Shown one piece after another: positions 29,668 to 51,047 of a stretch of DNA of 64,000 nucleotides. Numbering within the stretch: position 1 is the first letter of the stretch; every line of letters begins with the position of its first letter. Made by a program: the position numbers and the translations under genes. The notes below the pieces were generated by a model. That model was not told the DNA's origin. It worked only from the letters and a program-made list of their open reading frames with translations, and did not search any database. The DNA comes from Escherichia virus TH34: sequence record MT446407.1. The stretch is one strand, 5' to 3'.

Positions 29668-30466
29668 GCGTGCTTTCCTTATTGGTTCTGACCCTGAAAT
29701 GTTTGTTCGTACTGCTTCTGGTGTTATCACCTCTGTGGCTGGTAAGCTGGGCTGTTCTAAAGATAACAAAATCGATCTGGCCCCTGATGTTCGTCTTCAA
29801 GAAGACAACGTTCTGGCTGAATTTGATATTAACCCACAGAAAGGGTTCGAAGCGTTTGATGATAACATCCAGCGTGGTATTGATCTGACCAACAAAGTTC
29901 TTAATGAACGTGGTATGGAAGCTGCACTTGGGATTAGTTCTCATGTGTACACTTCTGAAGAGCTGCAATCATTCCATCCATCAGCCTTTGTGTTTGGCTG
30001 TACTCCTGATTTCAACGCCTTCACTGGTCAGAAAAACCCATCTCCGGTAGCGACAGACAAAGGTCTGCGTACTGCTGGCGGTCACGTACACCTCGGTGTT
30101 GCAGGGTCTTTGGAAGTAACTCGACAGACTCAGATGATGCTGGGTGTTCTCTGTGATTACTTCCTGTCACTTCCAGCAGTAATTATGGATAAGGACACTC
30201 GTCGTAAAGAGCTTTACGGCAAGGCATCTGCTATTCGTTATAAAGATTATGGTATTGAATACCGTTCTCTGTCGAACTTCTGGATTGGTGAACAGTCCAC
30301 TCGTAAGTTTGTTTACGATCAAGTTGATAAGGTTATTCAGGGCTGTGATATGGAAATTCTCATGTCTCTGCACTCCCGTCTGCCTATCGAAAAGCTTCAC
30401 AACATCATCAATAGCAATGATGTTAAAGAAGCGGATAAGTTCTCCTCTAAACTCCAGATTATCTAA
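29660..30466 (+). CDS. amidoligase-like protein (glutamine-synthetase-like COOH-NH2 ligase fold), paralog 1
   Basis: about 268 aa from ATG 29660; acidic motifs GSDPEMF and EFDINP, GGHVHLG (H-x-H) and GIEYRSL, the last two echoed in ORF 31099 (STHVHMD, VEFRIS). Confidence 0.4.
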   Translation: MTKRAFLIGSDPEMFVRTASGVITSVAGKLGCSKDNKIDLAPDVRLQEDNVLAEFDINPQKGFEAFDDNIQRGIDLTNKVLNERGMEAALGISSHVYTSEELQSFHPSAFVFGCTPDFNAFTGQKNPSPVATDKGLRTAGGHVHLGVAGSLEVTRQTQMMLGVLCDYFLSLPAVIMDKDTRRKELYGKASAIRYKDYGIEYRSLSNFWIGEQSTRKFVYDQVDKVIQGCDMEILMSLHSRLPIEKLHNIINSNDVKEADKFSSKLQII

Positions 30467-30475
30467 GGTGTTATC

Positions 30476-31102
30476 GTGAGCCTGTTAAGAGATTTTCAGC
30501 ATTATTATTGCGGAACATGGATTGCCCAACGTGCAGAACGAGGGATTAATTTACCTCTTTATGTACTCAACGTGAACCAAGCAAACCGCTTTGGAGAAGA
30601 TGACTTCTCTCACGAAGCAGAAATGGCCTTAACTTTTGAAGTTGAACGCTGGTCTAAGAACGCCGAAGGGCAGTTTGAACGACAGGTTGTTCAGGGCATT
30701 CCTGTGTTTGATCAAAGCCTTATTCTGGAATCTCCAGATGTGGGATACTTACAACACGGCAACAACATGGTAAGCTGGACTCATATCAACCCTGTTCGTC
30801 AGCGAGCTAAGGGTCTGATGGGGAACAAATTACGTGGTGCACCTCCTTCAATGGGTCGTTCGATTCCGGGAGAGCTGGTGTATAATCTGTTTAATCCTGA
30901 CTTCGAAGGTCTGGTTACTCGCTTCATCTACATCAACCCTGTCGATGGTAAAGTTTATTACAAAGGGGCACTTGTAGGTCAAGTTGATCTTTCTGCTGGT
31001 TACGGCGACAATGGTCGTCAATCTTTAAATCTTCTGGAGAAGTTCAAGCATATTTCTTCAGATCTGTCATCATATAATGTAGAGTTGGTGGAAACGTTAT
31101 GA
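30476..31102 (+). CDS. hypothetical protein (cluster member)
   Basis: 208-aa ORF; stop overlaps the next start. Confidence 0.5.
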   Translation: MSLLRDFQHYYCGTWIAQRAERGINLPLYVLNVNQANRFGEDDFSHEAEMALTFEVERWSKNAEGQFERQVVQGIPVFDQSLILESPDVGYLQHGNNMVSWTHINPVRQRAKGLMGNKLRGAPPSMGRSIPGELVYNLFNPDFEGLVTRFIYINPVDGKVYYKGALVGQVDLSAGYGDNGRQSLNLLEKFKHISSDLSSYNVELVETL

Positions 31103-32199
31103 CAACCGTAGCACAAGTTTTTGGATACCGTAATGCTCGTCTGGCTGAGCCGCACCCAAGCATCGCTTTTCAGTGTGGTATTGGCATCGAGCTGGAAGTT
31201 GAAGGAACCTCTGAAATTGATGCAGACCTTTGGGTTTGTACTGAAGATGGTTCACTTCGTGATGGCTGTGAGATGGTTTGTGCACGGCCTTACAACGGTG
31301 TAGAATTGCTTAGTGCTATTAACAATCTGAGTGAAGCAGTACAAGACTCTGAAGCTGAAGGGACTTGGCGCTGCTCTACTCACGTTCATATGGATATGCG
31401 TGACGCTGATAGTAACATCCTGAAGAAAGTAATTCTTGGATGGACGTTCTATGAAAAGATGATGTTCAAATGTTCTGGATACCATCGCTATCGTAGCAAC
31501 TTCTGTCCTGCCTTTGCTGTTGTTCAAGCACAGGTAATGAATGCTTCCGCAGCGTTCAACCGAGATGGTGAAGCCTTCTTCAATACTCTTGTTAATAGCT
31601 GGGACAAGTACACCTCCCTTAACCTATTACCTCTGGCTCAGTTTGGTTCTGTTGAATTTCGTATCTCAGAGCCAAAGTGGAAGAAAAGCCAACTCCTTAA
31701 TCTGGTCAACCGCTTCTTAGTTCTCAAGAAACTGGCTGTTGAGTATGCAGATTTGGATAATGAAGCATATGTTGAGAAACTGAATGAGCTACGCTTCGCT
31801 CCTATGATTCAGTATCTGCCTCTGGACTACACACCTAATGATGATGACCTGACTGGTGGTTATCGTTTGGCTCGTGATATTCTGTTCTGTCGTGAACATT
31901 CTGTTACTCTGGTTGGTCGTGTTCGTGTACAGCAGACCGGACCTGATGGTGAAATCCTTATCAACTTGCGTGATATGGGTGACTTCTACGGTTTCTTGGG
32001 ATATGTACGTGGTAATGCCAACTCTATTTATGAAGAGATCATGACCTATTACACCCCTCAGATTGAAAACACTCGAATCGCAACGGTTCGTGAAATTCGT
32101 CACATGTTTGCTCTGATGCGTGAATCAGGTAGCAGTGATGATAACGTCACTGGTTACATTCCAGACCATCTGGAAATGCAATTAGAACGACTGCTGTAA
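31099..32199 (+). CDS. amidoligase-like protein, paralog 2
   Basis: 366 aa; GIGIELEVEG (E-x-E), EDGSLRDGCEMV, STHVHMD, VEFRISEP motifs consistent with glutamine-synthetase-like amidoligases. Confidence 0.5.
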   Translation: MTTVAQVFGYRNARLAEPHPSIAFQCGIGIELEVEGTSEIDADLWVCTEDGSLRDGCEMVCARPYNGVELLSAINNLSEAVQDSEAEGTWRCSTHVHMDMRDADSNILKKVILGWTFYEKMMFKCSGYHRYRSNFCPAFAVVQAQVMNASAAFNRDGEAFFNTLVNSWDKYTSLNLLPLAQFGSVEFRISEPKWKKSQLLNLVNRFLVLKKLAVEYADLDNEAYVEKLNELRFAPMIQYLPLDYTPNDDDLTGGYRLARDILFCREHSVTLVGRVRVQQTGPDGEILINLRDMGDFYGFLGYVRGNANSIYEEIMTYYTPQIENTRIATVREIRHMFALMRESGSSDDNVTGYIPDHLEMQLERLL

Positions 32200-32276
32200 C
32201 ACAATGGGCGCTCTGATAAAGGGCGCATTTAAAGGTTAATTAGATGAAAGGGTTTACCCTTCAGGTGGATTAGAAA

Positions 32277-34310
32277 ATTTGTGGTATCGTATTAGCTGGG
32301 GGCAACATGACCTCCACAGACTTAGACGTATTCAACCAGCTTCTGTATGCTGGAGTCTTCCGTGGTCAGCACTCAACTGGTGTGTTCGGTCAGCGTAAAG
32401 GTGATGAAAAAGTATTTTCTTATAAAGAAGCACTTCCTTCCTATGCCTTCATGCTCCAGACAGGGTACACGAATCTTACTAAGGGGCTTACGAACTATGT
32501 AGTTCCTCCATCGTGGATTGTTGGTCATAGCCGACATGCCACACGTGGTGCGGTCAATGCTCGAAATGCTCACCCATTCTCTCATGGTGACATTACTCTG
32601 GTTCATAATGGTACACTGTTAGATCAGGAACTGTTACCAGATCATAAGAATTTCGAAGTTGATAGCGAAAACATCTGTCATTCAATCAACACCATCGGTG
32701 CAGCAGAGACTATCCAGAAGTTGGATGGTGCGTTCACTTTAATCTGGCATGACGCCAAAGACAATACTCTGCATATCATTCGTAACGATGAACGTCCTTT
32801 CCATCTGGCCCGTTGTGGTCTAGATTGGTTTGGTGCTTCTGAAGAAGATATGTTGATGTGGATTCTTAATCGTTCCAAGTCACACAAGAACCGTATCAAT
32901 GATCACTTTGAGTGTAAAGTGGGAACTGAATACATCTTTGATTTGTCTGGCAACCGTATGACTCTGACTCAAGAGGTGGAGCACAAGCTTCCGGTTTTTA
33001 CGGTAACGAGTCGCTGGGGCGGCTATTACTCGAACTCTTCTCTGTATCAGAACCAACAGACAAACAAATCAAGCAGCAGCACAAGCGACATTTACGGAAA
33101 CAAAGACGACAAGCCCGGCGTGACAAGCGGAGACATTCGTCGTCGTAAAGCGATTGAAGATCAGAATAAACTGGCTGCCGATCGTGGTCTTCCGTATCGT
33201 CGTGACGGTCGTGTGGATATCATTCCTCATGAGTTCCACGCTTATAACAACACTGACCGTGGTAAGATGGTTGGTTATATTTATGATGATGCTGCTCAAG
33301 AGTATGTTGAGGGTGATGTTCATAATGTAGCCAAGAGTGAATACTTGAAGGCTCTCGAAAACCCAAAGGTAGTGTATCGCGGGACAGTTGCTTGTATCTC
33401 CGAAGTGGACAGTATGATTCGCCTCGTACTCACTTCAGGGCTGTTTGTTGATGCTACCGATAAGGAGCCTCAAAGCACTACCGCTGATTTTGATGATGAT
33501 ATCCCTTTTGATTTAGAAGACTCCTTCATCACTAAGAATGGTGTGGAAGTCACCCGTAAGTTCTGGGAATCACATTCTCATGGTGATTGTGGCGGTTGTG
33601 ACAAGCATATTGAATGGAAAGATGCTAAGAAAGCTGTGTTCGCTTACCAAGCATATTGGCATCCGGCCTGTTTCGAAGCATTGTCCAAACCGTCTGAAGA
33701 AGATGAAGACATTCCTTTGGGTGTCTGTGCTGTATGTGGCAATGTTAAAACTGATTTCGAGTTTGATAACGAAATGAGTAAACTTCGTGGTGAAGATATT
33801 TGTTATGTCTGTGCCAAAGAGATCAAAGACAAAGTGACTAACACTACATTGTCTGAAGGTTACATTTGGACTAAAGCAGTTGACACAACCAACCCACGTC
33901 GCCCTGAAGTAGCAGTTCGTGTTGATCAGCGTATGCTTAGCCGGATGATTGTAATGGTCAGCTCAGCTAAACGTTCTGGTGACATTGAATTGTCTGATGT
34001 TCCAAATTCTTATTTGGAAAAACGTGGTGGTGATACCTATGCCATCTCTGTTTATGGTCCAAAGAATGCCCCAAAGGAGGTGCCCGCTGAGAAAGCGGAA
34101 ACATTTCCAGAAAAGCAAACAACTCTCCGAAAAACAGTTGTCAGTTACGACGGACAACGAACAGCTGAGTTCACAAAAGCCCTCTGGACTTCAATTGGGT
34201 TTTGTGCGGTCTGTTATAAACAAATTCCGTGGCGTGATGCAGAAATTTGCTCACTGAACAAAGAAAACAGGGTGATCTGTAATTCAGATTACTGTAAAGG
34301 TAAACATTAA
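32277..34310 (+). CDS. class-II glutamine amidotransferase (Ntn-hydrolase)-like protein with C-terminal zinc-ribbon region
   Basis: GAT-II motifs RGQHSTG, LVHNGTL, DGAFTLIWHD, IRNDERPFHL; the canonical N-terminal C-G-I-V is encoded at 32280 just upstream of the first ATG (32307), preceded by ATT (32277) and SD AGGTGG (32263-32268); C-terminal half has several C-x2-C pairs. Confidence 0.7.
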   Translation: MCGIVLAGGNMTSTDLDVFNQLLYAGVFRGQHSTGVFGQRKGDEKVFSYKEALPSYAFMLQTGYTNLTKGLTNYVVPPSWIVGHSRHATRGAVNARNAHPFSHGDITLVHNGTLLDQELLPDHKNFEVDSENICHSINTIGAAETIQKLDGAFTLIWHDAKDNTLHIIRNDERPFHLARCGLDWFGASEEDMLMWILNRSKSHKNRINDHFECKVGTEYIFDLSGNRMTLTQEVEHKLPVFTVTSRWGGYYSNSSLYQNQQTNKSSSSTSDIYGNKDDKPGVTSGDIRRRKAIEDQNKLAADRGLPYRRDGRVDIIPHEFHAYNNTDRGKMVGYIYDDAAQEYVEGDVHNVAKSEYLKALENPKVVYRGTVACISEVDSMIRLVLTSGLFVDATDKEPQSTTADFDDDIPFDLEDSFITKNGVEVTRKFWESHSHGDCGGCDKHIEWKDAKKAVFAYQAYWHPACFEALSKPSEEDEDIPLGVCAVCGNVKTDFEFDNEMSKLRGEDICYVCAKEIKDKVTNTTLSEGYIWTKAVDTTNPRRPEVAVRVDQRMLSRMIVMVSSAKRSGDIELSDVPNSYLEKRGGDTYAISVYGPKNAPKEVPAEKAETFPEKQTTLRKTVVSYDGQRTAEFTKALWTSIGFCAVCYKQIPWRDAEICSLNKENRVICNSDYCKGKH

Positions 34311-34321
34311 GAGGTGAAGTT

Positions 34322-34555
34322 ATGGAAGTTCGTAAATTGATGTTGGATAACGTTGTAACCACTCGACGTATCCCAATGACAAGCACAGGATGTGATAACC
34401 TTCGAGCTATTCAGAAATGGATGCAAGAAGGTATTGGGGGACTGGTTAACTCTCCAGTTGAAATCCCTTTCCCAACCGTTATCAATAACGTGTTGGCTGA
34501 CTATGTGAAATTGAAGGGGATTAAAGTTGAGCCTCATGTCAAGCAAGGGAGCTAA
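34322..34555 (+). CDS. hypothetical small protein
   Basis: 77-aa ORF with RBS gaggtgaag. Confidence 0.4.
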   Translation: MEVRKLMLDNVVTTRRIPMTSTGCDNLRAIQKWMQEGIGGLVNSPVEIPFPTVINNVLADYVKLKGIKVEPHVKQGS

Positions 34556-34757
34556 GCCTCACCTGACAATGCTGGAGTATCAACAACTCCGACTTCAACA
34601 ACTGGTAACGGAGCAGCGAAAGCTGTATCCGTTTGCTTTTAACCTAATTGATTCACCAAGCGATGACCAAGAAGACGAGATGTTCTCCAAGTATTGGGAA
34701 ATCGAAGTTAAAATTCAATCCTGTCGTAACGAAATTCTTAAACTAAAAGGTATCTAA
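34527..34757 (+). CDS. hypothetical small protein (start uncertain)
   Basis: 76-aa ORF overlapping the previous one; alternative start near 34569. Confidence 0.3.
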   Translation: MSLMSSKGAKPHLTMLEYQQLRLQQLVTEQRKLYPFAFNLIDSPSDDQEDEMFSKYWEIEVKIQSCRNEILKLKGI

Positions 34758-34759
34758 AA

Positions 34760-36007
34760 ATGACTACTCGTATCCGTGTTCTTCCGTATGGCCCTTCTGA
34801 TTCTGTTAACGCTCTGGTAACTGCCATTAGTGATACTATCCGTGATGAACGTATCAACGCTAACGTAATGGGTCTTCTTTCTGAGAACAGTCGCTGGCGT
34901 TCTCGTGAGGGTGATGTGGTTGTGAACTACGGGAACCGCCGCTATCCTGAATCCTTCTTTGGTTCTGCAACTGTTCTTAACCGTACCGCAGCCTTACACA
35001 TGGCAGCGAACAAACGTCGTGCTTTCAGCGTGATGGACCAAGCAGGTGTTAAAACTGTTGAGTATACAGATGTTCAAGAGATTGCTCAGGAGTGGTCAAA
35101 CTCTGGCAACATTGTGTATGAACGTCATGAACTGACTGGTCACTCTGGTTCGGGTATTATTGTTGTTGAGCCTCGTGATTCAGTTGGTCAAGCTGAACTG
35201 TACACCAAAGGTATTCAAGGCCCACGTCGTGAATGGCGTGTCCATGTGTTCAAAGGTGCAATCACCTATGTTCAGAAGAAAATTCGTCGTAATGGTTATC
35301 GTGAAGACCCTAACTATCGTGAAGATGTTCGTAACCATCACACTGGTTGGGTTTACTCAAGCTCTTTTACGGATGTTCCGAACGATGCATCTCTGATCAA
35401 CGCAGTGAAGGCCGTTGAATCGATGGGTCTGGATTTTGGTGCAGTTGATATCATTACTAAAGGTCGAGAAGCATGGGTACTGGAAGTTAATACAGCACCG
35501 GGCCTGACTGGTACAACTCTGGATACCTACCGTCACAACATCCTTGAGTTTGTTAAAGCTCAAAACCCTCTCTATACTCCTCAGTATAAAGTGGTTTACC
35601 AGACTCCTGTTGAAGCTCCAATTGAAGATGGAGATGGTGAATTGGTTGCTGACAGTGAAAGTGCTGATGATGAAAACTTCGCACTGGAAGGCCAAGTCGC
35701 ACAGCCGGTTGATTCAGTGGATGTAGTTCCTGAAGAAATGCAACTGGAAGGTCAGATGAATACTCAGACAATCCGTAATGCACCTACTGGTTATGTGTTG
35801 TCTCGTGGTTACTGGATTGCAGATATTCGTCATGTTCATAACAACCTGCAACCTAATGCAATGTCTGCCAATGTCATTCTGTTCTGCGATGGTCGTAACT
35901 TCTACCGCAGTGGCTGGAACGTTCCGGTTCATCCGCAACAAGTCCACAACCCTCGTAAGTTAGAGTCTGTAACTGTTGAAGGTAGTGAAGTGGCAGTAAC
36001 TCTGTAA
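34760..36007 (+). CDS. ATP-grasp superfamily ligase
   Basis: 415 aa; GHSGSGIIVVEP (Gly-rich loop), EWRVHVFKG, DFGAVDIITKGREAWVLEVNTAPGLTG motifs typical of RimK/glutathione-synthetase-like ATP-grasp enzymes. Confidence 0.7.
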   Translation: MTTRIRVLPYGPSDSVNALVTAISDTIRDERINANVMGLLSENSRWRSREGDVVVNYGNRRYPESFFGSATVLNRTAALHMAANKRRAFSVMDQAGVKTVEYTDVQEIAQEWSNSGNIVYERHELTGHSGSGIIVVEPRDSVGQAELYTKGIQGPRREWRVHVFKGAITYVQKKIRRNGYREDPNYREDVRNHHTGWVYSSSFTDVPNDASLINAVKAVESMGLDFGAVDIITKGREAWVLEVNTAPGLTGTTLDTYRHNILEFVKAQNPLYTPQYKVVYQTPVEAPIEDGDGELVADSESADDENFALEGQVAQPVDSVDVVPEEMQLEGQMNTQTIRNAPTGYVLSRGYWIADIRHVHNNLQPNAMSANVILFCDGRNFYRSGWNVPVHPQQVHNPRKLESVTVEGSEVAVTL

Positions 36008-36027
36008 TTAAACAAAAGGAATTTGTA

Positions 36028-36270
36028 ATGTTGTCTATCGAAGATTTGATCAGTCGTGGAATGACCGAACAAAAAGAACCTCTGATTGTTGGTTCTCGTA
36101 AAGCTATTAACCAACTCTGTGAAGAGTTTGGAATCACAAACAAGAGAATGATTGGTAATCAGTTCTCTGCAATTGTCACCTTCCTTAAACGAGGTGATAA
36201 ATATTCAATGGAATGTGTTGAGCGTATCATCGCAATTGCACAAGAAGATAAGGGAGTAACAACTCTGTGA
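36028..36270 (+). CDS. hypothetical small protein
   Basis: 80-aa ORF. Confidence 0.4.
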   Translation: MLSIEDLISRGMTEQKEPLIVGSRKAINQLCEEFGITNKRMIGNQFSAIVTFLKRGDKYSMECVERIIAIAQEDKGVTTL

Positions 36271-36452
36271 ATAAATACACAATCATGTTTCGTACAGTAA
36301 ACTCAGAAGGTAATATTCAATCTCTAGATATTCAAGCAGATCGCTTTGAATCACTTGGAACAAGTGTTAACTTCTTCCGAGGAGTAGAGTTGGTAGGTAC
36401 ATTCCAATCTGACGTGTTGACTGGTGTGATCAAACACTTCGAAGTAGAATAA
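36267..36452 (+). CDS. hypothetical small protein
   Basis: 61-aa ORF. Confidence 0.35.
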   Translation: MNKYTIMFRTVNSEGNIQSLDIQADRFESLGTSVNFFRGVELVGTFQSDVLTGVIKHFEVE

Positions 36453-36517
36453 TTTGCTTTAGCCTCTTCGGAAGAGGGGGCTAGTTCAAATTTAACTGAA
36501 ACACAAAAGGTAATATA

Positions 36518-36949
36518 ATGTCTGATAAAGTATTAGTAGCAACTTACGGCAGCTTGAGAAAAGGTCAACACAACCACGCTATCAATGCTCGTGCCGGTGG
36601 TGTGTCTATTGGTGAGGGTTGGACAGTGAACAACTGTAACCTGTATCAGTATTGCACAGCATACTTCCCAAGTGTGTCTCTGGAGCACGACAGCAATGGC
36701 AAGCCTGTTCGTGTGGAAGTATTTGAAACAACTCAAGCTGGTTTGGAAGGTCCGTATGACGGTCTGGAAGGTTATCGTGGTAAAGACAATCCATACACTT
36801 TCTACAATCGTACACTAATTCCAGTAGTGCTGGATAGTGGTGAAACTGTGGAAGCATGGATTTATCATATCGACGAAGAACAAGATGTTCTGGTTGAATC
36901 TGGCGACTGGACAGCGTATCTGGCAGGTGATCAGGATGACAGTAACTGA
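36518..36949 (+). CDS. gamma-glutamyl cyclotransferase-like (AIG2/GGCT fold) protein
   Basis: 143 aa; N-terminal ATYGSLRKGQHNH (YGSL motif) and downstream DGLEGY with a candidate catalytic Glu. Confidence 0.7.
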   Translation: MSDKVLVATYGSLRKGQHNHAINARAGGVSIGEGWTVNNCNLYQYCTAYFPSVSLEHDSNGKPVRVEVFETTQAGLEGPYDGLEGYRGKDNPYTFYNRTLIPVVLDSGETVEAWIYHIDEEQDVLVESGDWTAYLAGDQDDSN

Positions 36950-37178: not shown

Positions 37179-38969
37179 ATGTCAAAGATCATTTTAGGGG
37201 ATACAGGTTGTAAAGAATGTATCTCTCATGGTCGTGATAAGACCCACAATCACATGATTCTCTTCCGAAACGAAGAGTCCGGTGAAGAGTGGGGCAGTTG
37301 TAATCGTTGTGGTAGTTATGAAGTTTTCGAAAAGGGAACAACTCCTACACCGAATGAAAAGAAAGAACTATCCCCTGAAGAACTCCGAGAGATCTTAGAC
37401 GATTGCTTAGAGCTGCCTCAGGGTGAGCTTACTCGTCGTTTGATTCCTAAAGCTGTCTCTGAACGGTATGAATGCCGTATTGGTTTGAGTCAGACAGATG
37501 GGCAAACTCCTGATAGTTACTTCTTCCCTCGTGAACGTGATGGAAACATTGTTGGTTATGAAGTTAAGCTTCTAGACAGCAAGAAATTCTATTACATCGG
37601 CAGTGTTAAAGAAGCTGACCTATTCGGTATGGCTCAAGCACAACGCGGGGACGTGTACAACAAGAAGCTCTTCATCTTTGAAGACCCACTCTCTTGTATG
37701 TCTGGCTTCCATGTGCTCACTGCGTTCACGAACGCTACAAACATCAAACCTGCGTGTGTATCTCTACCGTTTGGTGCAGGTTCAATCTCTTCCGTTCTCT
37801 CACGTAACCGTGACTTCTTGAATGGTTTTGAGGAGATTGTGCTCTGCATGGACAATGATGATGCAGGTGAGATTGCATTAACTAAAGGTCGTGCATTATA
37901 TCCCCATGTTAAATTTGCTCGTATTCCGAAAGGAACCTTCACTTACAATGGTCAAGAGAAGGAAATCAAAGATGCAAATGACATGTTACTCGCTGGTCGA
38001 GGTCAAGAGCTATTCAACAATCTGAAATATTCAGCGAAGCGGGAATCACCTGCTGGTGCTGTTACTGTCTTTGATTGTTTAGAAGACGCTCTGAAGAAAG
38101 CGGAATGGGGTATTCCTTATCCGTGGAAAACTCTGAATGAAATGACCTTCGGCATTCGTTGGGGAGAGATGGTTGCAATCGGTGGTGGTGTTGGTTCAGG
38201 TAAAACCTTAATCGCACACGAACTGGTAGCATGGCTTTGCCTTGAGCATGGTTTTAATGGTGGTGGCTTCTTCTTGGAAGAGAAGGTAGGCATGTCTGTT
38301 AAAAACATTGCAGGTAAATCAGCATCTGTACCTTTCCACCGACCTGATGTTGAATATGAGGAATCTCAGCTACGTGACGAAGCACTCCGTTACGCTGACA
38401 AGTTCTTCTTGTATGACAACTTCGGACAGAATGAGTGGGATGATATTAAGCAGTGTATTCGCTTCTGGGTAGTTGAGAATCAGTGTAAGTTTATCATTCT
38501 TGATAACATCACTGCATTAGTTTCTCACCTAACTCCATCTGAGGTGAATACAGAAATCAGTAAGATTGCTTCAGAGCTTGCTGGTATGTGTAAGGAATTA
38601 GACTTCACTGCTTTTGTATTATCTCACTTGAATGCTCCGGCAGGTGGTGCTCCTCACGAAGAAGGTGGGCAGGTGAAAGAAGTTCAGTTCACTGGTTCAC
38701 GTTCACTGATGCGTTGGTGTCAGTGCATCATCGGTTTTGAGCGAGATAAGCAAGCGGATGGGTTAGGCAAGAACTTGTCAATCATACGACTTCTCAAGGA
38801 GCGTAACTACGGTCAGACAGGTGTTTGCTACACCAAGTATATCAATGAAACAGGTCGACTTGTAGAACGAGAAGATCACGAAGTTGATGAAGCTAATCCG
38901 TTTGTCTTGACCAATGGTGAGGATGCAGCTTCTCTGCTCACACAAGACGGGGAGGCACGACCTTGGTAA
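37179..38969 (+). CDS. DNA primase-helicase (T7 gp4-like)
   Basis: 596 aa; N-terminal Cys4 zinc ribbon (CKECISHG...CNRCG), TOPRIM-like [10 protein letters not shown], DnaB-type Walker [10 protein letters not shown]. Confidence 0.85.
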
Positions 38970-39511
38970 AGAAAATATTCGCCTTCGATATCGAGGGTGA
39001 TAATCTCTATGAGGGCATCCAAAATGTCTGGTGTATCTGGATATTTGATGTTCTTACAGGTGAACGGTGGGGGTATCGCCCTCACCAAATTGAAGAAGCT
39101 CTTCACAAACTGAAGGAAGCTGATATAGTTGTAGGACACAACATCATAGATTTTGACCTACCAGCTCTCTTTAAATTCTACTCTCATGTAATACCTTTCC
39201 ACTTCAATGTCTTTGATACACTTTGCCTGAGTCGTTATCTCAAGCCTGACCGTATTGGAGATAATCCAGAATATCCCAAAGGCGACCCTAGACATGGCCC
39301 TCGTGGTCATGGCCTCAAGCAATGGGGCGAATTTCTGGGTGAACTGAAGGGTGATTATGGTGAGCAGGAAGAAGCATGGGATGCATTCACTGAAGACATG
39401 TTCACATATTGTGAGCAAGACGTTAACTTAACAGTTAAGGTTTACATGTGTCTTTGCCAAATGGCAGGATTTGATTATAAGAATCCCCCATCTCTCAACT
39501 GGAAAATGTAG
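38963..39511 (+). CDS. stand-alone 3'-5' exonuclease (DnaQ/DEDD), probable proofreading subunit of a split family-A DNA polymerase
   Basis: 182 aa; Exo I FDIEGD, Exo [14 protein letters not shown], Exo III YCEQDV. Confidence 0.7.
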
Positions 39512-39513
39512 AA

Positions 39514-40950
39514 ATGATTAAGATTCCATTGTCTGAATTAAACCTTCAAGAAGGAGAAGCCCTCAGTGTAGGGCTTGACCTGATTCGTAATTTGATCAGA
39601 GATAACGTAGTCCCTGATGGTATCTATCCTGTTATTGCGGGTGGTGCTATCCGTGATACGTTCTTCCAAAATCGAACTCCGAATGACGTTGATATCTTCC
39701 TAGTTCAAGGAGGATTTCGTTGGAACACTCGTCAGGAAAACAGCCCTGCTAACGTGGGTAATGCTGCACTGTTCCTTGACAACTTCTTGTCTTGGACAGA
39801 GAGTAAAGGGCTTCAAACTACATCTCGCCTAGTTCAGCCTGTTAGTGGGACAAATTACGCTGAAGCACTTTTCACTTTCCAAGAGATTTTGGAAGTGGAG
39901 ATTGACGAAGTGAAGATTCAGATGATGATTAACCTCCCTCTGGATATGGATACTCTGAGAGGTCGCTTCCCTATGATTTGTCAAGGGTTTATGACTCTCG
40001 ATGATATGTATGTGTCGAACGAAGGTATGTTTGCAATGGCATATACTAATGATATCCCTGTGGTGACAAGTCGTGACATGAAGTATGTCCACAAAAAGTG
40101 GCCTGAAGCAACAGTTGCAGTTTACAGCAGTTCTACTGAGTATATGCACCTTGCAATGGGAGCTTTTGGTGAACCAGAAGTTCATCTGATCAGTGATTTA
40201 GTTGGGCCTATGGCTGGTGTAAACTTGTATCAGAATCAACGTCGCCACTACACCTTGAAGATGATGGAAACTGTATTAAATATTCCTCAGGAAGCGGGTC
40301 GTAACTATCTGGATGAAGAGGTTAACCTACAGACAGATTGGTCTAGTGAATTAACCACTATTGGTGTTGAAGCAATTACGCAGCCTTGGACTCCGGGAAC
40401 TGACAGACGTGACTCTTGGCAACAGACAAGATTCGCAGCACCTGCTACAGAGGCACCTCGTGATACTTTCACTGGTAGTTTTGGTAGTGCCCGTTCTTCT
40501 GGAATGGGTACTCGTACATGGCACGTCACTCATGATACAGGTGGAGTAACTGTTCGACCTGCTTCTTCTCCATCTATGGGTGATTTGCAGCGTTCCCGTC
40601 GTTCATGGGAAACAGTTAGCTCTGTTGTTCAGGGTCTACGTTCTAGTGATATAGAACGTGTAGAAGTTGGTGATTTGCCAACCCCTACAGAAGATCGGGT
40701 AGCAGCTATAGCGGCTCGTGAAGCTGCTCGTACTGGCTTTGCATCTTTAGCTAACGACGCTCGACCTGTTGGTCGTCGTAATGGTCTGGCTCATTCTAAC
40801 ACTGCACTTGGTGCAGAACTCCGAGCAACAGCTCGTGAATTAGTTGGTGAACTTGATAGTAACTTAGCAGGTGTTACGCTGACTCGTGAAACAGCTCGTA
40901 ACATGATTAACAATTTGACATCATCTGTACAAGGAAACAGAAACTCATGA
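39514..40950 (+). CDS. Pol-beta superfamily nucleotidyltransferase (CCA-adding / poly(A)-polymerase-like head) with low-complexity C-terminal half
   Basis: 478 aa; GGAIRD...DVD signature near N-terminus; C-terminal about 200 aa rich in S/T/R/A. Confidence 0.5.
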   Translation: MIKIPLSELNLQEGEALSVGLDLIRNLIRDNVVPDGIYPVIAGGAIRDTFFQNRTPNDVDIFLVQGGFRWNTRQENSPANVGNAALFLDNFLSWTESKGLQTTSRLVQPVSGTNYAEALFTFQEILEVEIDEVKIQMMINLPLDMDTLRGRFPMICQGFMTLDDMYVSNEGMFAMAYTNDIPVVTSRDMKYVHKKWPEATVAVYSSSTEYMHLAMGAFGEPEVHLISDLVGPMAGVNLYQNQRRHYTLKMMETVLNIPQEAGRNYLDEEVNLQTDWSSELTTIGVEAITQPWTPGTDRRDSWQQTRFAAPATEAPRDTFTGSFGSARSSGMGTRTWHVTHDTGGVTVRPASSPSMGDLQRSRRSWETVSSVVQGLRSSDIERVEVGDLPTPTEDRVAAIAAREAARTGFASLANDARPVGRRNGLAHSNTALGAELRATARELVGELDSNLAGVTLTRETARNMINNLTSSVQGNRNS

Positions 40951-41480
40951 GTCTTTTAGGTTCTCAAGAACTACACAACGTTATTGATAATGGCTTTTTA
41001 GATGCGGAGCATAAATATGTTAACGCTGCTAGCGTGGATATCCGTATTGGTGATACTATCCTTGTTGAAGAACAGGCTGACGGCATTGTTGACATTGATG
41101 CTAAAGAAAATCTCAAGTGGAAAGAAGTGAAAATCCCTGAAGATGGTATTGTCATCACTCCGGGACAATTCTTCTTAGCTCACTCAATGGAAGAGTTTAA
41201 CCTTCCAGATAACATCTCAAGTCTGTTTGTACTTCGCTCCTCAATGGCTCGTTGTGGTTTGAACCACTTACATGCTGGTTGGGCTGATGCAGGGTTTAAC
41301 AGCAGTAAGCTGACCTTTGAATTCCATAACGTTACCCACAACCACAGCTTACGAGTTCGTGCTGGGATGCGTGTTGGTCAGATGGTTATGTTTGAACACT
41401 CTCACGCTGGTGATGATTCCTATGCAGTGAAGGGTCGTTACAATGGCAGCAATGGGGTAGTTGCATCTAAAGGTGTATAA
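40947..41480 (+). CDS. dCTP deaminase / dUTPase-superfamily protein
   Basis: 177 aa; N-terminal LGSQELHNVIDNGFL and SVDIRIG pattern resembling Dcd-type enzymes. Confidence 0.5.
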   Translation: MSLLGSQELHNVIDNGFLDAEHKYVNAASVDIRIGDTILVEEQADGIVDIDAKENLKWKEVKIPEDGIVITPGQFFLAHSMEEFNLPDNISSLFVLRSSMARCGLNHLHAGWADAGFNSSKLTFEFHNVTHNHSLRVRAGMRVGQMVMFEHSHAGDDSYAVKGRYNGSNGVVASKGV

Positions 41481-41485
41481 CCAAG

Positions 41486-41677
41486 ATGAAAGAAGAAAAA
41501 GCTACTTACTTAGCTATTGGTTTTGTAGTTGGGGCATTTGCTATGGGAGTATTTATATCTAACGTTGGTCCAGATTCTAGCGTTAAGATTGAGACGAGAA
41601 GAGCCGCTTGTGAAATAAATCTCCCTCGTAATCAGGTCTGTGTAATGCAGTTTGTCCCTAAATCGGTTGACAGATAA
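41486..41677 (+). CDS. small membrane protein
   Basis: 63 aa with one TM segment (YLAIGFVVGAFAMGVFI). Confidence 0.4.
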   Translation: MKEEKATYLAIGFVVGAFAMGVFISNVGPDSSVKIETRRAACEINLPRNQVCVMQFVPKSVDR

Positions 41678-41889
41678 TGGAGTTTGGAACAATGAAAAGA
41701 CGTTGGGTAGTTCGTATTCACTGGAGCAGTGGTACAGAGTCAATGGGTATTAGGAATACCCGTCAAGAAGCTCGCGCTCATAAGAAGTTCTTGTTAAGTT
41801 GTGAAAGCACAATTAATAAGATCACTATCCACAAAGCTCAAGACTTTAAATCAGGTCGTTTCTATATCAGCGGAAAGGTACATTACTAA
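41677..41889 (+). CDS. TRQEAR-family small protein, paralog 1
   Basis: 70 aa; W..R..W....G....NTRQEARAHKK ... ending ...Y; shared with 41889 and 43752 ORFs. Confidence 0.45.
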   Translation: MEFGTMKRRWVVRIHWSSGTESMGIRNTRQEARAHKKFLLSCESTINKITIHKAQDFKSGRFYISGKVHY

Positions 41890-42104
41890 TGGATAAATTA
41901 TGGGCAGTTCGTACTAAATGGGCTAACAAAGCTCTTGGTGGTGATTGTATTCAATTATTCAACACAAGACAAGAGGCTCGTCTTGCTAAGAAAACTATAA
42001 AAGCTACAAAAGCTTTAGGAATCGCTGAAAAGGTGGAGATTCATCGTTGGATTGAAAATATCCAGAACAGTGCTGGATTCATATCCAGCAAGGTTTATTA
42101 CTAG
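41889..42104 (+). CDS. TRQEAR-family small protein, paralog 2
   Basis: 71 aa; WAVRTKW...NTRQEARLAKK. Confidence 0.45.
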   Translation: MDKLWAVRTKWANKALGGDCIQLFNTRQEARLAKKTIKATKALGIAEKVEIHRWIENIQNSAGFISSKVYY

Positions 42105-42156: not shown

Positions 42157-42504
42157 ATGAAACAGGAGAGAGTTATGTTAGATTTGAGTAAAGTGGCCCC
42201 GCCATCTGAAGAGATTAGCAAAGCTAAAGTTATGCAGCAGTTCTATCATCGTGATATGCTTGGTCGTTATATCAAGAATCGTGATGTTGTTGCATGGTCT
42301 ATTGGAAATCAAGGTTATCTTCTCAAAGTGTTGCAAGTTACTGGCTCAACAGCCAAGCGAGTCAAAGTCTATGACCCTGAAATGGGGCGTTCTAAGTCTG
42401 TAGACCCACAGAATTGCATTGTTATTACCCAGCAGGTCATGGACAACATTGCTCGTAACGTAGCCAATTCAACCAATTTAGAAGGAGAGACTCCTAATGC
42501 ATAA
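42157..42504 (+). CDS. hypothetical protein
   Basis: 115-aa ORF. Confidence 0.4.
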   Translation: MKQERVMLDLSKVAPPSEEISKAKVMQQFYHRDMLGRYIKNRDVVAWSIGNQGYLLKVLQVTGSTAKRVKVYDPEMGRSKSVDPQNCIVITQQVMDNIARNVANSTNLEGETPNA

Positions 42505-43063
42505 TAATGTCTTCGACTTACCTGAACTAACACGAGTGGGTTCTAGTAACCCATTCTCTACAACTGACTCCTCTATCTCTCGTCTTGAGGGAATGAATAA
42601 ACTGATCAGCGGTAACAGTCTAGAGCACATCCTATGCGGTGTGCAGGCTAACCTTGAGCTTCTACACATCAAAGCAAAGAATTACCACTGGAACGTCTCT
42701 GGAGCTGGTTTCCAAGGTGTTCATGGTATGTTCGATGAATTAGAAGACTATGCTCGTGAAACAGGAGACCGAGTAGCTGAGCGAATGCGTTATCACTGTA
42801 TCAAAGTGGATGCAACAGCTAGTAGCTATCTTAGTTGTGCTTGGTTCAGAGAAGGTAGTGCTGATCTCGACATGGACGGTATGCTTTCCGACATGTGCAT
42901 GACTCTGATGTGTATCATTGAAAAGATGGACGAGTTTGATTCAGACTTGTGCACTTATCCAGTAGACCAGAGTATGCTTCAAGAAATTAATGAAGGTCTT
43001 GGCAAGTTCTGTTACTTCGTCAAGAGCAACATGTCCCACTCTAGTGGCGATGTGTCTTACTAA
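42497..43063 (+). CDS. Dps/ferritin-like protein
   Basis: 188 aa; LELLHIKAKNYHWNVSGAGFQGVHGMFDELEDYARETGDRVAERM closely follows the Dps helix pattern (HW..G..F...H..FDE....D..AER). Confidence 0.55.
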   Translation: MHNNVFDLPELTRVGSSNPFSTTDSSISRLEGMNKLISGNSLEHILCGVQANLELLHIKAKNYHWNVSGAGFQGVHGMFDELEDYARETGDRVAERMRYHCIKVDATASSYLSCAWFREGSADLDMDGMLSDMCMTLMCIIEKMDEFDSDLCTYPVDQSMLQEINEGLGKFCYFVKSNMSHSSGDVSY

Positions 43064-43306: not shown

Positions 43307-43483
43307 TGAAATTAAACCTCCCTGAAGAATTACAAGCACATGCCATTATCATTAGTGGCTGTGTGATGGGTCTTGGTCAGACAAAGAAGATTGCTCATGA
43401 CTTAGCAAAAGGTCAGTATAAATCTTTTATTGTTGTTCCTGCTACCCAGCGTCATATCAACCTGTTTATTAACAAGGAATAGA

Positions 43484-43759
43484 ATGAGTAAAGTAATTAA
43501 GTTTTATAGTAATTCATGTGCTCCATGTGCAGCTATGGCTCCTGTGTTTAAGAAGGTTGTGGCTGACTACAGTGTAGAAGTTGAAGAAGTAAATATCTCT
43601 GAAGGTGATGGTCGAGAGCGAGCCATTGAATATGGTGTTCGCAGTATCCCAGCCTTTGTCGTCCCTGATAAGAATAGTGGCGCTCATTACAGCTTATCAG
43701 GTATTCAAACTGAATCTAATCTCCGTGCATTTTTAGACACGGCTCTGAAAGGTGTTTAA
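43484..43759 (+). CDS. thioredoxin-like protein
   Basis: about 91 aa from ATG 43484 (RBS aaggaa); CAPC active-site motif in FYSNSCAPCAAMAP. Confidence 0.6.
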   Translation: MSKVIKFYSNSCAPCAAMAPVFKKVVADYSVEVEEVNISEGDGRERAIEYGVRSIPAFVVPDKNSGAHYSLSGIQTESNLRAFLDTALKGV

Positions 43760-43976
43760 TATGGAAAAGAAACCTTGGACTACTTTTTGGGTAGTTAAGT
43801 GGTTTAATTTTGATAGCACAATCCCTAGCTTCTCCTCATACACAACACGGAGAGAGGCTCGCCGCTTTAAGCGAGCTTTAAAAATTGCTAACACTGGCGC
43901 TTCTAAGATTACAATTCAGAAAGGGATTGAAACAGAAAGTGGAAGCAACATGATTTATAAAAAGATTCATTATTAA
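43752..43976 (+). CDS. TRQEAR-family small protein, paralog 3
   Basis: 74 aa; WVVKWF...TTRREARRFKR. Confidence 0.4.
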   Translation: MFNMEKKPWTTFWVVKWFNFDSTIPSFSSYTTRREARRFKRALKIANTGASKITIQKGIETESGSNMIYKKIHY

Positions 43977-43980
43977 GGAA

Positions 43981-44454
43981 GTGATGTTATACGGTAATTT
44001 GGAATACAACCCTGAAACTGGAGACTTCTTTAGGAATAGCAAAAAGCTAGGAGGAAAGAGGAGCAAGTATGCAACCCTTCGGTTTCAAGGTAAAGTAAGA
44101 AAAGCACATGTGGTTGCTTGGTTTATTTATTATGGGGAGTGGCCTACTTCTCAAATAGACCATGAAGATGGTAATAAGAGGAACAACTCAATCTCTAATC
44201 TTCGATTAGTAGACACCTCTACTAACTGTCACAATCAGTTTGGTGCAAGATCTTCAAACATACAATCAGGTTTTCAAGGGGTTAAAGTTGTTAAGTACAA
44301 ATCAGGCACTATTCGATATAGAGCAGTTATTTGTATTAATGGCAAAGATATACACCTAGGGATGTATGGAACTCCTGAAGAAGCACATCAAGTCTATATA
44401 GAACGGAAAAAGGAACTTTTACGTGAACGAACAACTAACAGCAACATTGATTGA
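43981..44454 (+). CDS. HNH homing endonuclease
   Basis: 157 aa; H-x-(D/E)-G-(N/D)-x-x-N-N motif DHEDGNKRNNSISNLRLV. Confidence 0.65.
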   Translation: MMLYGNLEYNPETGDFFRNSKKLGGKRSKYATLRFQGKVRKAHVVAWFIYYGEWPTSQIDHEDGNKRNNSISNLRLVDTSTNCHNQFGARSSNIQSGFQGVKVVKYKSGTIRYRAVICINGKDIHLGMYGTPEEAHQVYIERKKELLRERTTNSNID

Positions 44455-45073
44455 ACATATGGGAAGCGATAAATCCGTTGTGAATGCGGCAAGGGTTTCT
44501 TTTGGTGTTGTACGAGAAGGTGATTTAAATGAACGTGATGAAAGACTCATTAAATTCTTGGCAAGGGAAAAACACTGTACACCATTTCGTCATCCAACAA
44601 TTAGCTTCCGATGCAAAGCGCCAATCGCAATTGCACGACAACTTGGAAAACATCAAGTGGGGTTCTCGTGGAACGAAATGTCCCGGCGGTATAAAGATGG
44701 AGCAGTTGAACTCTTCATCCCTAAAGAGATTTTTGAAAGACCTTCGGACCTCCATGCAGGTGCAGGGAATCTCCTCACCACAGGAGCACAAAACTCTGCA
44801 CTAGTTCTGATTAACCGAGCATATGAAACAGCTCTTGAGTCGTACGATGAATTGATTAAGTTCATTGCTCCAGAACAAGCTCGATTCGTATTACCTCAGG
44901 GTATGATCACTGAGTGGGTATGGACTGGTTCTCTATATGGTTGGTCAGAGTTGTGTCGTCAGCGACTGTCAGACCATGCTCAGTATGAGGTGCGTTTGTT
45001 CGCATCAACAATTGATGAAGAGCTTCGTAAAATATATCCAATCTCTTGGGATGCATTACGTGAAGCCCACTAA
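44423..45073 (+). CDS. ThyX-like (flavin-dependent thymidylate synthase family) protein with divergent signature
   Basis: 216 aa; H..PF.H...SF......IARQL followed by GKHQ in the position of the canonical RHR, then SWNEMSRRY (ThyX S-x-x-x-S-x-R-Y-like). Confidence 0.5.
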   Translation: MNEQLTATLIEHMGSDKSVVNAARVSFGVVREGDLNERDERLIKFLAREKHCTPFRHPTISFRCKAPIAIARQLGKHQVGFSWNEMSRRYKDGAVELFIPKEIFERPSDLHAGAGNLLTTGAQNSALVLINRAYETALESYDELIKFIAPEQARFVLPQGMITEWVWTGSLYGWSELCRQRLSDHAQYEVRLFASTIDEELRKIYPISWDALREAH

Positions 45074-49199: not shown

Positions 49200-51047
49200 G
49201 TGATGGATAACCCTGATAAGTTACCTTTCATAACGGAGATGACAGTCGCTGATATAATCTCAAAGCAGGCGAAGCATGGCGTCAACTTCCACAGAAGAAA
49301 CGCTCGGTGGTTTGTTCACCTTCTCAAAGAGATTATTGTCAATATTGATAAAGAACTGATTCCTCTCCTCCCCAAAATGCGGGTGGATGGTTCAACTTAT
49401 TCGAAACCTTTTAAGAAGTCAGGTTCTTTACAGAAGTGGCCTCAGCTCTATTGTGACAGAGTTGGTCTTAAAAGGGAAGATATCGGTGGGGCGTTTACTT
49501 GCGTTGAGTATGTAGACTTCGACCCATCGAAAGATGCACGTATCAAAGAAGCCTTGATGGACGAAGGCTTTATTCCTCCAGAGTGGAACACATCCAAGAA
49601 ACCTTGGAATACTTACGAAATCCGTAAAGCGATGAAGAAGTATGGCACATATGCTGCTTGGTATTCTGCTTGGATGCGGGGAAACGCTAAAGAAAAACAG
49701 ACAGCTGAGATGATTGACGCTGACATTCGTCGGTTCTTGGATAAACACTTCCGTTATCACACTGTCAATTACATGAAAGCGTACGTTAGTGGTTTAGGCT
49801 TGAATCCGAACAGGAAGAAGCCTGTAACCTTTGATGAAATTAAGAAAGCTTTAGCCATGTCAAACAAGTGGCCTACAGCTCCTACAAACCTCGAGGAGAC
49901 GCTTGAAGAAGGTCTTGGGGGTGAGCTAGGGGGTGTGGGAGGTTTGCTTAAGAGACGTGTTGTAGCGGCTCACAGGCTTGGCTTGATTAATGGTCTTATA
50001 GACAAGGAACGAGAAGATGGTAAGTTGTCCGCCGAAGCTAATAGCTGCGCTACTCCGACATTTCGTTTTAAACACCGTATTGTTGTTAATATTCCTTCTC
50101 GCGGTTTGTTTGGTCACGAGTGCCGCAGTCTATTTCAGTCTGACTGTACCTCAAGTGATAGTAATCACAATCCTATCATCATTACCAACCATATCCCTGA
50201 TGGGTGTTACGTACGAAAAGGTACAAACACTATCTACGAAGTGGGAAAACCGGGCAAGAAAGACAAACCGATAGGTGCTCTGAAATATTACATACCTTCT
50301 GGTCATGAAGTATTTCTTGGTTATGATGGTTCAGGGTTAGAACTGCGTATGCTGGCTCACTACCTTATTAAAGAGTGTCGTGAGATGTTGGCAGAGGCAG
50401 AACAAGAGAATAACCCAGCTAAGAAACGAGAAGCTGAACGCGGTTTAGCATCTGCCGTATTGTACAGAGATATTCTCTTACAGGGTGATATTCACTCCCA
50501 TAACCAGAAACTTGCTGGCTTGCCTACCCGTGATAATGCTAAGACGTTTATCTACGCATTCAACTACGGAGCTGGTGATGCTAAGCTAGGTAGTATTGTT
50601 GGTGGTGGGGCTGATGAAGGTTCTATAATGAGAGCTAGATTCTTAGCAGAGAACCCTTGTATTGCAATCCTTATTGAACGTATGACAGAGAAAGCACAAA
50701 GTGGATACATCTACGGTGTTGACGGTCGTCGTATTACAATGAGACGTGACGGTACAGGAAAGGTCATGACACACAAAGCCTTAAATACGCTCTTACAGAG
50801 CGCTGGGGCGATTGTTATGAAGTATGCAATGCTATTCCTCAATAAATGGATTGAGCGTGATGGTGTTCGTTGTGCGAAGGTTATCGACATGCATGATGAA
50901 GGTCAGTTCACTGTACATCGTGATGATGTTAACAAACTTCGCACTCTCACTGAGGAATGTGTTCGTAAAGCGGGTGAATACCTCAAGATGGAATGCCCTC
51001 TTGCATCAGATTGTAAGATTGGACTGAATTGGCAGCATACGCACTAA
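49200..51047 (+). CDS. family-A DNA polymerase, polymerase domain only
   Basis: 615 aa; motif A LGYDGSGLELRMLAHY, motif B RDNAKTFIYAFNYGAG, motif C MHDEGQF; no exonuclease motifs in this ORF. Confidence 0.8.
   Translation: MMDNPDKLPFITEMTVADIISKQAKHGVNFHRRNARWFVHLLKEIIVNIDKELIPLLPKMRVDGSTYSKPFKKSGSLQKWPQLYCDRVGLKREDIGGAFTCVEYVDFDPSKDARIKEALMDEGFIPPEWNTSKKPWNTYEIRKAMKKYGTYAAWYSAWMRGNAKEKQTAEMIDADIRRFLDKHFRYHTVNYMKAYVSGLGLNPNRKKPVTFDEIKKALAMSNKWPTAPTNLEETLEEGLGGELGGVGGLLKRRVVAAHRLGLINGLIDKEREDGKLSAEANSCATPTFRFKHRIVVNIPSRGLFGHECRSLFQSDCTSSDSNHNPIIITNHIPDGCYVRKGTNTIYEVGKPGKKDKPIGALKYYIPSGHEVFLGYDGSGLELRMLAHYLIKECREMLAEAEQENNPAKKREAERGLASAVLYRDILLQGDIHSHNQKLAGLPTRDNAKTFIYAFNYGAGDAKLGSIVGGGADEGSIMRARFLAENPCIAILIERMTEKAQSGYIYGVDGRRITMRRDGTGKVMTHKALNTLLQSAGAIVMKYAMLFLNKWIERDGVRCAKVIDMHDEGQFTVHRDDVNKLRTLTEECVRKAGEYLKMECPLASDCKIGLNWQHTH

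Follow-up and report, generated by a model that had tools for sequence, protein, structure and literature searches.

The 64,000-nucleotide stretch of Escherichia virus TH34 analyzed here (sequence record MT446407.1; hereafter, the window) encodes, at 39514..40950 on the plus strand, a conserved nucleotidyltransferase that belongs to the replication module of phiEco32-like phages (Gordonclarkvirinae; PHROG 12715). The open reading frame (ORF) starts with ATG, ends with TGA, and specifies a protein of 478 amino acids (aa). Three points come out of our analysis: the protein falls outside the CCA-adding enzymes; its clade is narrow, confined to phages, and tied to LUZ24 gp42-like proteins and distantly to Gad2; and, wherever neighboring genes could be read, its gene is linked to that of a PolA exonuclease subunit.

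The window comes from a phiEco32-like podophage in the genus Suseptimavirus (subfamily Gordonclarkvirinae). In the 5 kb surrounding the nucleotidyltransferase gene, it is 99.6% identical to Escherichia virus TH42 and 94% identical to ECBP2. The ORF matched PHROG 12715 ("nucleotidyltransferase") over its full length (E = 4.3e-155; residues 1–471 against profile positions 1–456/457), and we found full-length homologs in 22 phage records and homologs of the N-terminal domain in ~97. Judging by the full-length profile match and these homologs, a chance origin of the ORF is excluded. Nor is the gene new: it already bears the label "nucleotidyltransferase" in the RefSeq entries of ECBP2 and SU7, has a place in a PHROG, and has come up in two papers. 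The homolog in SU10 was seen in a lysate by mass spectrometry in 2014 (PMC4281155). A first-pass annotation of the window had pointed to GGAIRD and DVD signatures in this ORF, and we located them at residues 43–48 and 58–60, respectively, the latter within N-DVD-IF (57–62).

A Pol-beta-type domain with a head closest to class II enzymes

Residues 1–276 (39514..40341, +) make up a folded N-terminal domain that consists of a Pol-beta nucleotidyltransferase head and a family-specific alpha/beta subdomain. A model of residues 1–285, built on a 36-sequence alignment, had a mean pLDDT of 85.8 and a pTM of 0.85. When the domain was compared with known structures, E. coli poly(A) polymerase scored highest (PDB 3aql; 10.4), followed by the B. 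stearothermophilus CCA-adding enzyme (1miv; 9.4), 4wby (9.2), the CCA enzymes of T. maritima (3h37; 8.9) and human (1ou5; 8.5), TENT5C (7.6), and CdnE (7.5). The best Foldseek matches were class II CCA enzymes, in agreement with this comparison. The domain shows the hallmarks of the Pol-beta superfamily: it folds as an alpha/beta sandwich and has an hG[GS] helix-turn, the strand that follows carries [DE]h[DE]h, and a third carboxylate sits on an adjacent strand.

Motif A (aa 43–60; 39640..39693, +) comprises the helix-turn and the two catalytic Asp residues in the form GGAIRD ... N-D58-V-D60. It reads GGAIRDTFFQNRTPNDVD, fits the pattern GGxVRDxxL(x5)DxD, and aligns to motif A of PDB 6ibp with a one-residue gap. 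Residue conservation was counted on an alignment of 36 family members, in all of which G43, G44, R47, D48, D58, D60, F62, Y115, I125, Q136, P153, Y191, and K195 are invariant. A beta-hairpin at aa 122–138 (39877..39927, +) carries the candidate third carboxylate, E124, as well as I125, Q136, and M138. Position 124 is D or E in 36 of 36 sequences and M138 is kept in 35 of them; E127 is not conserved in the family. An acidic triad of D58, D60, and the D/E at position 124 is thus present throughout the family.

Further along the domain, hhalign alignments and column counts delimited a segment, R-F-P-M-I-C-Q-G (aa 151–158; 39964..39987, +), that contains the invariant P153 and does not contain the RRD ribose-sensing residues. 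Leaning partly on general knowledge of class II enzymes, we take this segment to occupy the place of class II motif B (RRDFTINA) and of F-D-F-T-V-C-M-G in Gad2. A second, family-specific element is the helix D188-x-x-Y191-V-H-K-K195-W-P (aa 188–197; 40075..40104, +), in which position 188 is D or E in all 36 sequences and Y191 and K195 are among the invariant residues.

The likeness to class II CCA enzymes and poly(A) polymerases (PF01743; PDB 3aql, 1miv, 3h37, and 1ou5) is confined to the head: ~140–160 residues superpose with the window protein (141–161 in the individual superpositions), which correspond to the head domain. In class II enzymes, the neck, body, and tail domains select nucleotides and hold the tRNA. 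These enzymes possess a neck (with motif D, EDxxR), a helical body, and a tail, whereas we found none of the three in the window protein; they have RRD in motif B, whereas the window family has (R)FPxxC; and their C terminus is a helical tRNA-binding domain, whereas that of the window protein is disordered, which bears out the earlier remark that the C-terminal part is unlike the body of a tRNA nucleotidyltransferase. Direct searches with the window protein returned nothing in Pfam (E up to 0.1), NCBIfam, PADLOC, or the PDB sequences, and a profile search of the PDB matched only motif A of CCA enzymes. Likewise, hhalign aligned motif A alone (27–29 columns) with E. coli Cca, and neither the RRD of motif B nor the EDxxR of motif D had a counterpart in the alignments. 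The Kuravirus homologs reached 22.2 bits on PF01743 (the PolyA_pol head), for which the gathering cut-off is 23, and the window protein too stays under the threshold.

These data show that residues 1–276 are a Pol-beta-type domain with a complete set of catalytic residues and a head most like those of class II tRNA nucleotidyltransferases and of poly(A) polymerases. They also show that the neck, body, and tail are replaced by a subdomain specific to the family, which contains the invariant helix D/E-x-x-Y-x-x-K-K-[WY]-P. The first-pass annotation had described the N terminus as a head of the CCA-adding/poly(A) polymerase type, and both motif A and the fold bear this out. Family separation by hidden Markov model and structure gave the same answer: the head is nearest to tRNA nucleotidyltransferases and poly(A) polymerases, and we saw neither a match to a CD-NTase profile nor the two-lobed CD-NTase fold, in which a helical lobe lies at the C terminus. 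Judged by membership, however, the window protein is not a CCA-adding enzyme, because only the head is matched, the neck, body, and tail are missing, the Pfam threshold is missed, and the tRNA of the phage encodes CCA. This tRNA, the single one that the phage bears, is a tRNA-Arg(TCT) (23393..23468, +) with a genomically encoded 3' CCA; that the phage carries a tRNA of its own had been noted before.

Relatives among small phage nucleotidyltransferases

The nucleotidyltransferase family is narrow and phage-only. A profile search of 1.84 billion representative proteins returned ~31 clusters (50% identity) at E < 1e-10; a word-indexed homolog search covered relatives of at least 84% identity, and the remoter ones came from an alignment query and the exhaustive profile search. 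Beyond the family lies a second tier (E of 2e-7 to 1e-3) of small phage proteins, mostly ~170–290 aa, that score around the PF01743 threshold. LUZ24 gp42 and its relatives belong to this tier, and some of its proteins have solid precomputed matches to PF26128 ("Gad2"); for window-type proteins, no precomputed PF26128 matches were recorded. PHROG 1614 is common to the window protein, Gad2, gp42, and the small nucleotidyltransferases. Structural neighbors in BFVD are phage proteins of 137–215 aa (TM of 0.52–0.57), two of which are named "PolyA pol head domain-containing."

We used hhalign to compare the families, with the Gad2 sequence taken from SPbetaL7 (OQ921347). The window family aligned with the small phage nucleotidyltransferases, including LUZ24 gp42, at a probability of 99.4% (E = 3e-21, 166 columns), and the small nucleotidyltransferases aligned with the Gad2 family at 96.5% (E = 9e-10, 119 columns). 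The direct comparison of the window family with the Gad2 family gave a probability of 41% (E = 3e-4, 101 columns). On sequence grounds, these comparisons place the protein in a clade of minimal class-II-like nucleotidyltransferases that is specific to phages and distantly includes Gad2; within it, the window protein is divergent and enlarged. Among functional leads for the window protein, this clade of Gad2 and the small phage enzymes is the nearest. The Pfam Gad2 match on a Kuravirus homolog is faint, and we did not assign the window protein to the Gad2 family itself.

The LUZ24 gp42-like proteins (PHROG 7967 and 1614; ~200–310 aa), which occur in Bruynoghevirus, T7-like phages, and ICP1, are homologous to the window family over the whole core and share with it GGAxRD, DxDIF, xQxM, F-[DP]-x-x-C, and the K-[YW]-P helix. 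Their genes too sit in DNA replication/recombination modules, and gp42 too has a C-terminal extension. However, most of the gp42-like proteins are half the size and lack the subdomain at 205–276 and the long tail, and their neighbors are a flap endonuclease (FEN) or an endonuclease, whereas those of the window gene are the PolA exonuclease subunit and a dCTP deaminase.

Gad2 of Bacillus phage SPbetaL7 (PF26128) resembles the window protein in being phage-encoded and ~400 aa long and in having the same head subtype at its N terminus. Common to both are GGA...D-x-D-I-[FY], an invariant Q on the next hairpin, and F-[DP]-x-x-C-x-G. They differ in that Gad2 has GGAITS where the window family has GGAxRD, and the C-terminal region of Gad2 (aa ~120–390) is folded and conserved and has no counterpart in the window tail, the alignment ending at about Gad2 residue 116. 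Furthermore, Gad2 lies in a variable anti-defence locus, whereas the window gene is fixed in a replication operon. Gad2 inhibits Gabija, as established by genetics, and is a predicted nucleotidyltransferase (Yirmiya et al., bioRxiv 10.1101/2023.05.01.538930).

The C-terminal extension

The C-terminal 202 residues (aa 277–478; 40342..40947, +) form a lineage-specific extension of biased composition (T 12%, A 11%, R 11%, S 11%, and G 9%), with an isoelectric point (pI) of 8.9. The extension is predicted to be disordered, and AlphaFold gave residues 277–478 a pLDDT under 50 and placed four short helices in them. It had been described at first as a low-complexity tail. We confirmed the compositional bias, but "low complexity" overstates the case: the Shannon entropy per 40-residue window drops modestly in the tail, from 3.7–3.9 to 3.2–3.5 bits, no DNA-level tandem repeats were found in it, and its distal 130 aa are well conserved inside the genus.

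The ratio of nonsynonymous to synonymous substitution rates (dN/dS; Nei-Gojobori, 28 pairs) was 0.295 in the tail and 0.089 in residues 1–276. The substitution pattern therefore shows the tail to be translated and under purifying selection, though relaxed, and the tail is fast-evolving. The same frame runs to the same C terminus (..SVQGNRNS) in 22 independent 90%-identity clusters and in eight phage genomes, length differences in the tail are all multiples of three, and the other five frames of the tail contain 3–26 stops. The suspicion that the tail might stem from a frameshift, or from two genes fused by a sequencing or assembly error, has the odd tail composition as the only point in its favor and is ruled out to near certainty by the shared frame and C terminus, the dN/dS value of 0.30, the stops in the other frames, and the PHROG profile match across residues 1–471.

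Family members of 274–285 aa lack the long tail, which is a lineage-specific expansion, and tails of different genera can hardly be aligned. Its pI ranges from 5 to 11 across lineages, with acidic tails in Kuravirus (pI of 5.0–5.3). A search for a linear motif conserved across all tails found only 3 of 28 lineage pairs above composition-matched shuffles. The best-conserved block of the tail, identified tentatively, is the segment at aa 353–375 (PSMGDLQRSRRSWETVSSVVQGL; 40570..40638, +), with a predicted helix at 355–372. R362 is at least 90% conserved among 40 sequences, and the alignment of the window tail with that of another homolog, P0083 (one of the three pairs above shuffles; z of 5.1), is anchored in this segment by VRPASS..RRSWE. 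The window tail is without four residues (N-N-T-P or similar) that are found in most Suseptimavirus copies. Many short-tailed members of the family have aromatic C-terminal ends (..RFSFN, ..IRWQW, ..TTWDW, ..RRFNF, ..GGWTF, and ..SEYDF among P0080, P0087, P0092, P0093, P0089, and P0085), and these ends might be a docking motif.

Genomic setting and possible roles

The nucleotidyltransferase gene lies in a tightly packed block that begins with a primase/helicase gene (37179..38969, +). The constant 5' neighbor of the nucleotidyltransferase gene encodes a 182-aa PolA 3'-5' exonuclease subunit (38963..39511, +; PF01612, PHROG 38876/403), and the gene downstream encodes a 177-aa dCTP deaminase (40947..41480, +; PF22769, E = 1.4e-34). 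Start and stop codons in the block abut or overlap; the nucleotidyltransferase ORF starts 2 nt past the exonuclease stop, and its own stop overlaps the deaminase start (ATGA). We observed the order primase/helicase, PolA exonuclease subunit, nucleotidyltransferase in every member with readable flanks, down to 22–25% identity, and the dCTP deaminase came next in all members whose contig reaches far enough for identification. The genes of second-tier relatives adjoin PolA or lie between a flap endonuclease and an endonuclease. Promoter-like sites around the gene were not above shuffles, and a terminator scan gave no site that indicates a separate transcription unit for the nucleotidyltransferase gene.

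The family A DNA polymerase of the phage is split into the 182-aa exonuclease and a 615-aa polymerase subunit (49200..51047, +), which are ~9.7 kb apart and separated by many ORFs, including nucleotide-metabolism genes. The presence of this polymerase subunit led us to reject the idea that the nucleotidyltransferase stands in for a missing PolA polymerase domain.

We favor, tentatively and somewhat short of even confidence, the view that the protein is an active nucleotidyltransferase that serves phage DNA replication or counter-defence. Such an enzyme would catalyze Mg2+-dependent nucleotide transfer from a nucleoside triphosphate (NTP) or deoxynucleoside triphosphate (dNTP) onto a 3'-OH acceptor, which would most probably be the end of a nucleic acid. 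It would be co-translated with the phage replisome and work beside it, where it may process replicating phage DNA or RNA ends or shield them against host nucleases, either as a Gad2-like counter-defence or in support of replication. The tail may be a flexible docking or regulatory arm, and the enzyme would not be expected to restore tRNA CCA ends.

Several considerations weigh against this view. Activity is a prediction for every member of the family, and the characterized close structural relatives all work on RNA 3' ends, not DNA. The direct match between the window family and the Gad2 family is weak (41%, E = 3e-4), the PF26128 match on the Kuravirus homolog P0023 is faint, and the mechanism of Gad2 was itself still unknown in February 2026 (PMC12904381). 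A core syntenic gene, as opposed to the variable Gad2 locus, fits a housekeeping role in replication or nucleotide metabolism at least as well. Adjacency of genes is no proof of physical or functional coupling, and the spread of tail pI between lineages speaks against simple nucleic-acid binding by the tail.

Alternatively, as the first-pass annotation had suggested, the enzyme might repair tRNA 3' ends, restoring C, C, or A where host defence nucleases have trimmed the tRNAs of host or phage, with the arginine-rich tail taking the place of the tRNA-binding domains. Its closeness in motif and fold to the class II CCA-adding enzymes and to poly(A) polymerases is consistent with such a role, as are the mildly basic tail of the window protein and the tRNA gene in the phage. 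However, alignment with E. coli Cca is restricted to motif A, RRD and EDxxR have no counterpart, the helical body and tail domains are not present, PF01743 is missed, and the tRNA-Arg(TCT) already has its 3' CCA encoded; in addition, the Kuravirus tails are acidic, and the gene is always inside a DNA-replication operon, ~16 kb from the tRNA. We consider tRNA repair unlikely, and canonical CCA repair less likely than a replication or protection role, because the protein lacks both the domains that handle tRNA and the selection motifs, and because its gene is associated with DNA enzymes.

A different proposal is that the nucleotidyltransferase acts with the adjacent dCTP deaminase in a pathway of DNA modification or non-canonical nucleotides, which would explain resistance to restriction-modification (RM). 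Gordonclarkvirinae are remarkably RM-resistant and have no known modification or anti-restriction gene, and the pair of dCTP deaminase and nucleotidyltransferase has been suggested as a sign of DNA modification (BASEL, PMC11990801). The window keeps EcoRV (24), EcoKI (10), and EcoP1 (103) sites, so RM resistance does not come from site loss and another explanation is needed. The overlap of the nucleotidyltransferase stop with the deaminase start also fits this proposal, and the missing RRD ribose sensor at the motif-B position would be compatible with dNTP use. On the other hand, we know of no DNA base-modification pathway with a class II-like Pol-beta nucleotidyltransferase, which counts against the proposal. 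The phage encodes ThyX, which argues for an ordinary role of the deaminase in dTTP supply; the protein has no glycosyl-, methyl-, or amino-acyl-transfer domains, and LUZ24-like relatives lack an adjacent deaminase. We therefore regard a modification pathway as improbable. As a separate observation, restriction sites in the window are uneven: CCWGG occurs 4 times and GATC 138 times (238–300 expected), and six-base palindromes total 599 occurrences (811 expected), with 14 palindromes, those of PstI and SacI among them, not occurring at all.

The protein might instead synthesize a nucleotide signal or decoy (a cyclic or linear oligonucleotide) that jams or pre-empts host nucleotide-sensing immunity, or mimic a CD-NTase. 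The MNT-like enzymes of phages Bcp1 and Av05, which like the window protein are small, phage-encoded members of the Pol-beta superfamily, are a precedent for phage nucleotidyltransferases in counter-defence: MNT-like phage nucleotidyltransferases can make 3'3'-cGAMP or c-di-AMP, competitor (decoy) cyclic dinucleotides that inhibit TIR-STING (bioRxiv 10.1101/2022.06.09.495361). However, these enzymes belong to another clade with the motif GS-x-AY[GAN]T-x4-SDxD, whereas the window protein has GGAIRD...NDVD and its family GGAxRD, and we found no sequence or profile link between the window protein and MNT-like enzymes. There was also no PADLOC CD-NTase match and no CD-NTase C-terminal helical lobe. 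Signal synthesis accordingly has a slim chance of being correct.

We give a similarly low chance to the idea that the protein is a protein nucleotidylyltransferase, which would AMPylate or UMPylate a protein (perhaps a target in the host, or the S/T-rich tail of the enzyme itself), or that it is mainly a structural scaffold of the replisome that acts through its tail. The long, flexible, S/T-rich tail, the tight packing of the gene with replisome genes, and the aromatic C-terminal residues of many short-tailed relatives are consistent with this idea; aromatic ends of this kind resemble the C-terminal tails by which phage replisome proteins dock. However, the strictly conserved catalytic residues argue against a purely structural role, the nearest characterized relatives modify nucleic-acid ends rather than proteins, and the tails are not conserved between most lineages.

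Several other genes lie near the replication block. A ferritin/Dps-like "DNA-binding protein" (42497..43063, +; PF00210, PHROG 3636) is encoded in the same block in all relatives. In the window, a thioredoxin-like ORF (43430..43759) and ThyX (44423..45073) come after it, and relatives whose contigs extend far enough likewise have a thioredoxin and ThyX (PF02511). Three small paralogous ORFs of 70–74 aa (41677..41889, 41889..42104, and 43752..43976, all +) are 35–39% identical and share W..V..W, T-R-x-E-A-R..K, and a C-terminal K-[VI]-[HY]-Y. Immediately upstream of the replication block, a cluster of amide-bond/peptide-ligase-type genes (29615..36949, +) encodes a COOH-NH2 ligase (29615..30466, +), an amidoligase (31099..32199, +), a glutamine amidotransferase (32307..34310, +), a RimK-like ATP-grasp protein (34760..36007, +), and a gamma-glutamyl cyclotransferase-like ORF (36518..36949, +). 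Elsewhere, on a metagenome contig (L015:134-2460), a small Gad2-like nucleotidyltransferase (P0107) is followed by an AAA_28 protein and GTP cyclohydrolase I, a pairing that recalls 7-deazaguanine DNA-modification gene sets.

Our favored view of an active enzyme in replication or counter-defence can be taken one step further, to a Gad2-like counter-defence enzyme in the replisome operon. This enzyme would add tails or other nucleotidyl groups to replication intermediates or the ends of phage DNA, or would join the dCTP deaminase in making an unusual nucleotide. Host nucleases that sense DNA ends or read sequences, such as Gabija, RecBCD, and RM systems, would thereby be blinded. We hold this more specific version to be quite unlikely. 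If true, it would explain the broad restriction resistance of the Gordonclarkvirinae and reveal how Gad2-type enzymes work. The BASEL Gordonclarkvirinae now grow on E. coli K-12, which makes a knockout of the gene feasible, and such a knockout would bear both on restriction resistance in this subfamily and on the mechanism of Gad2-type enzymes.

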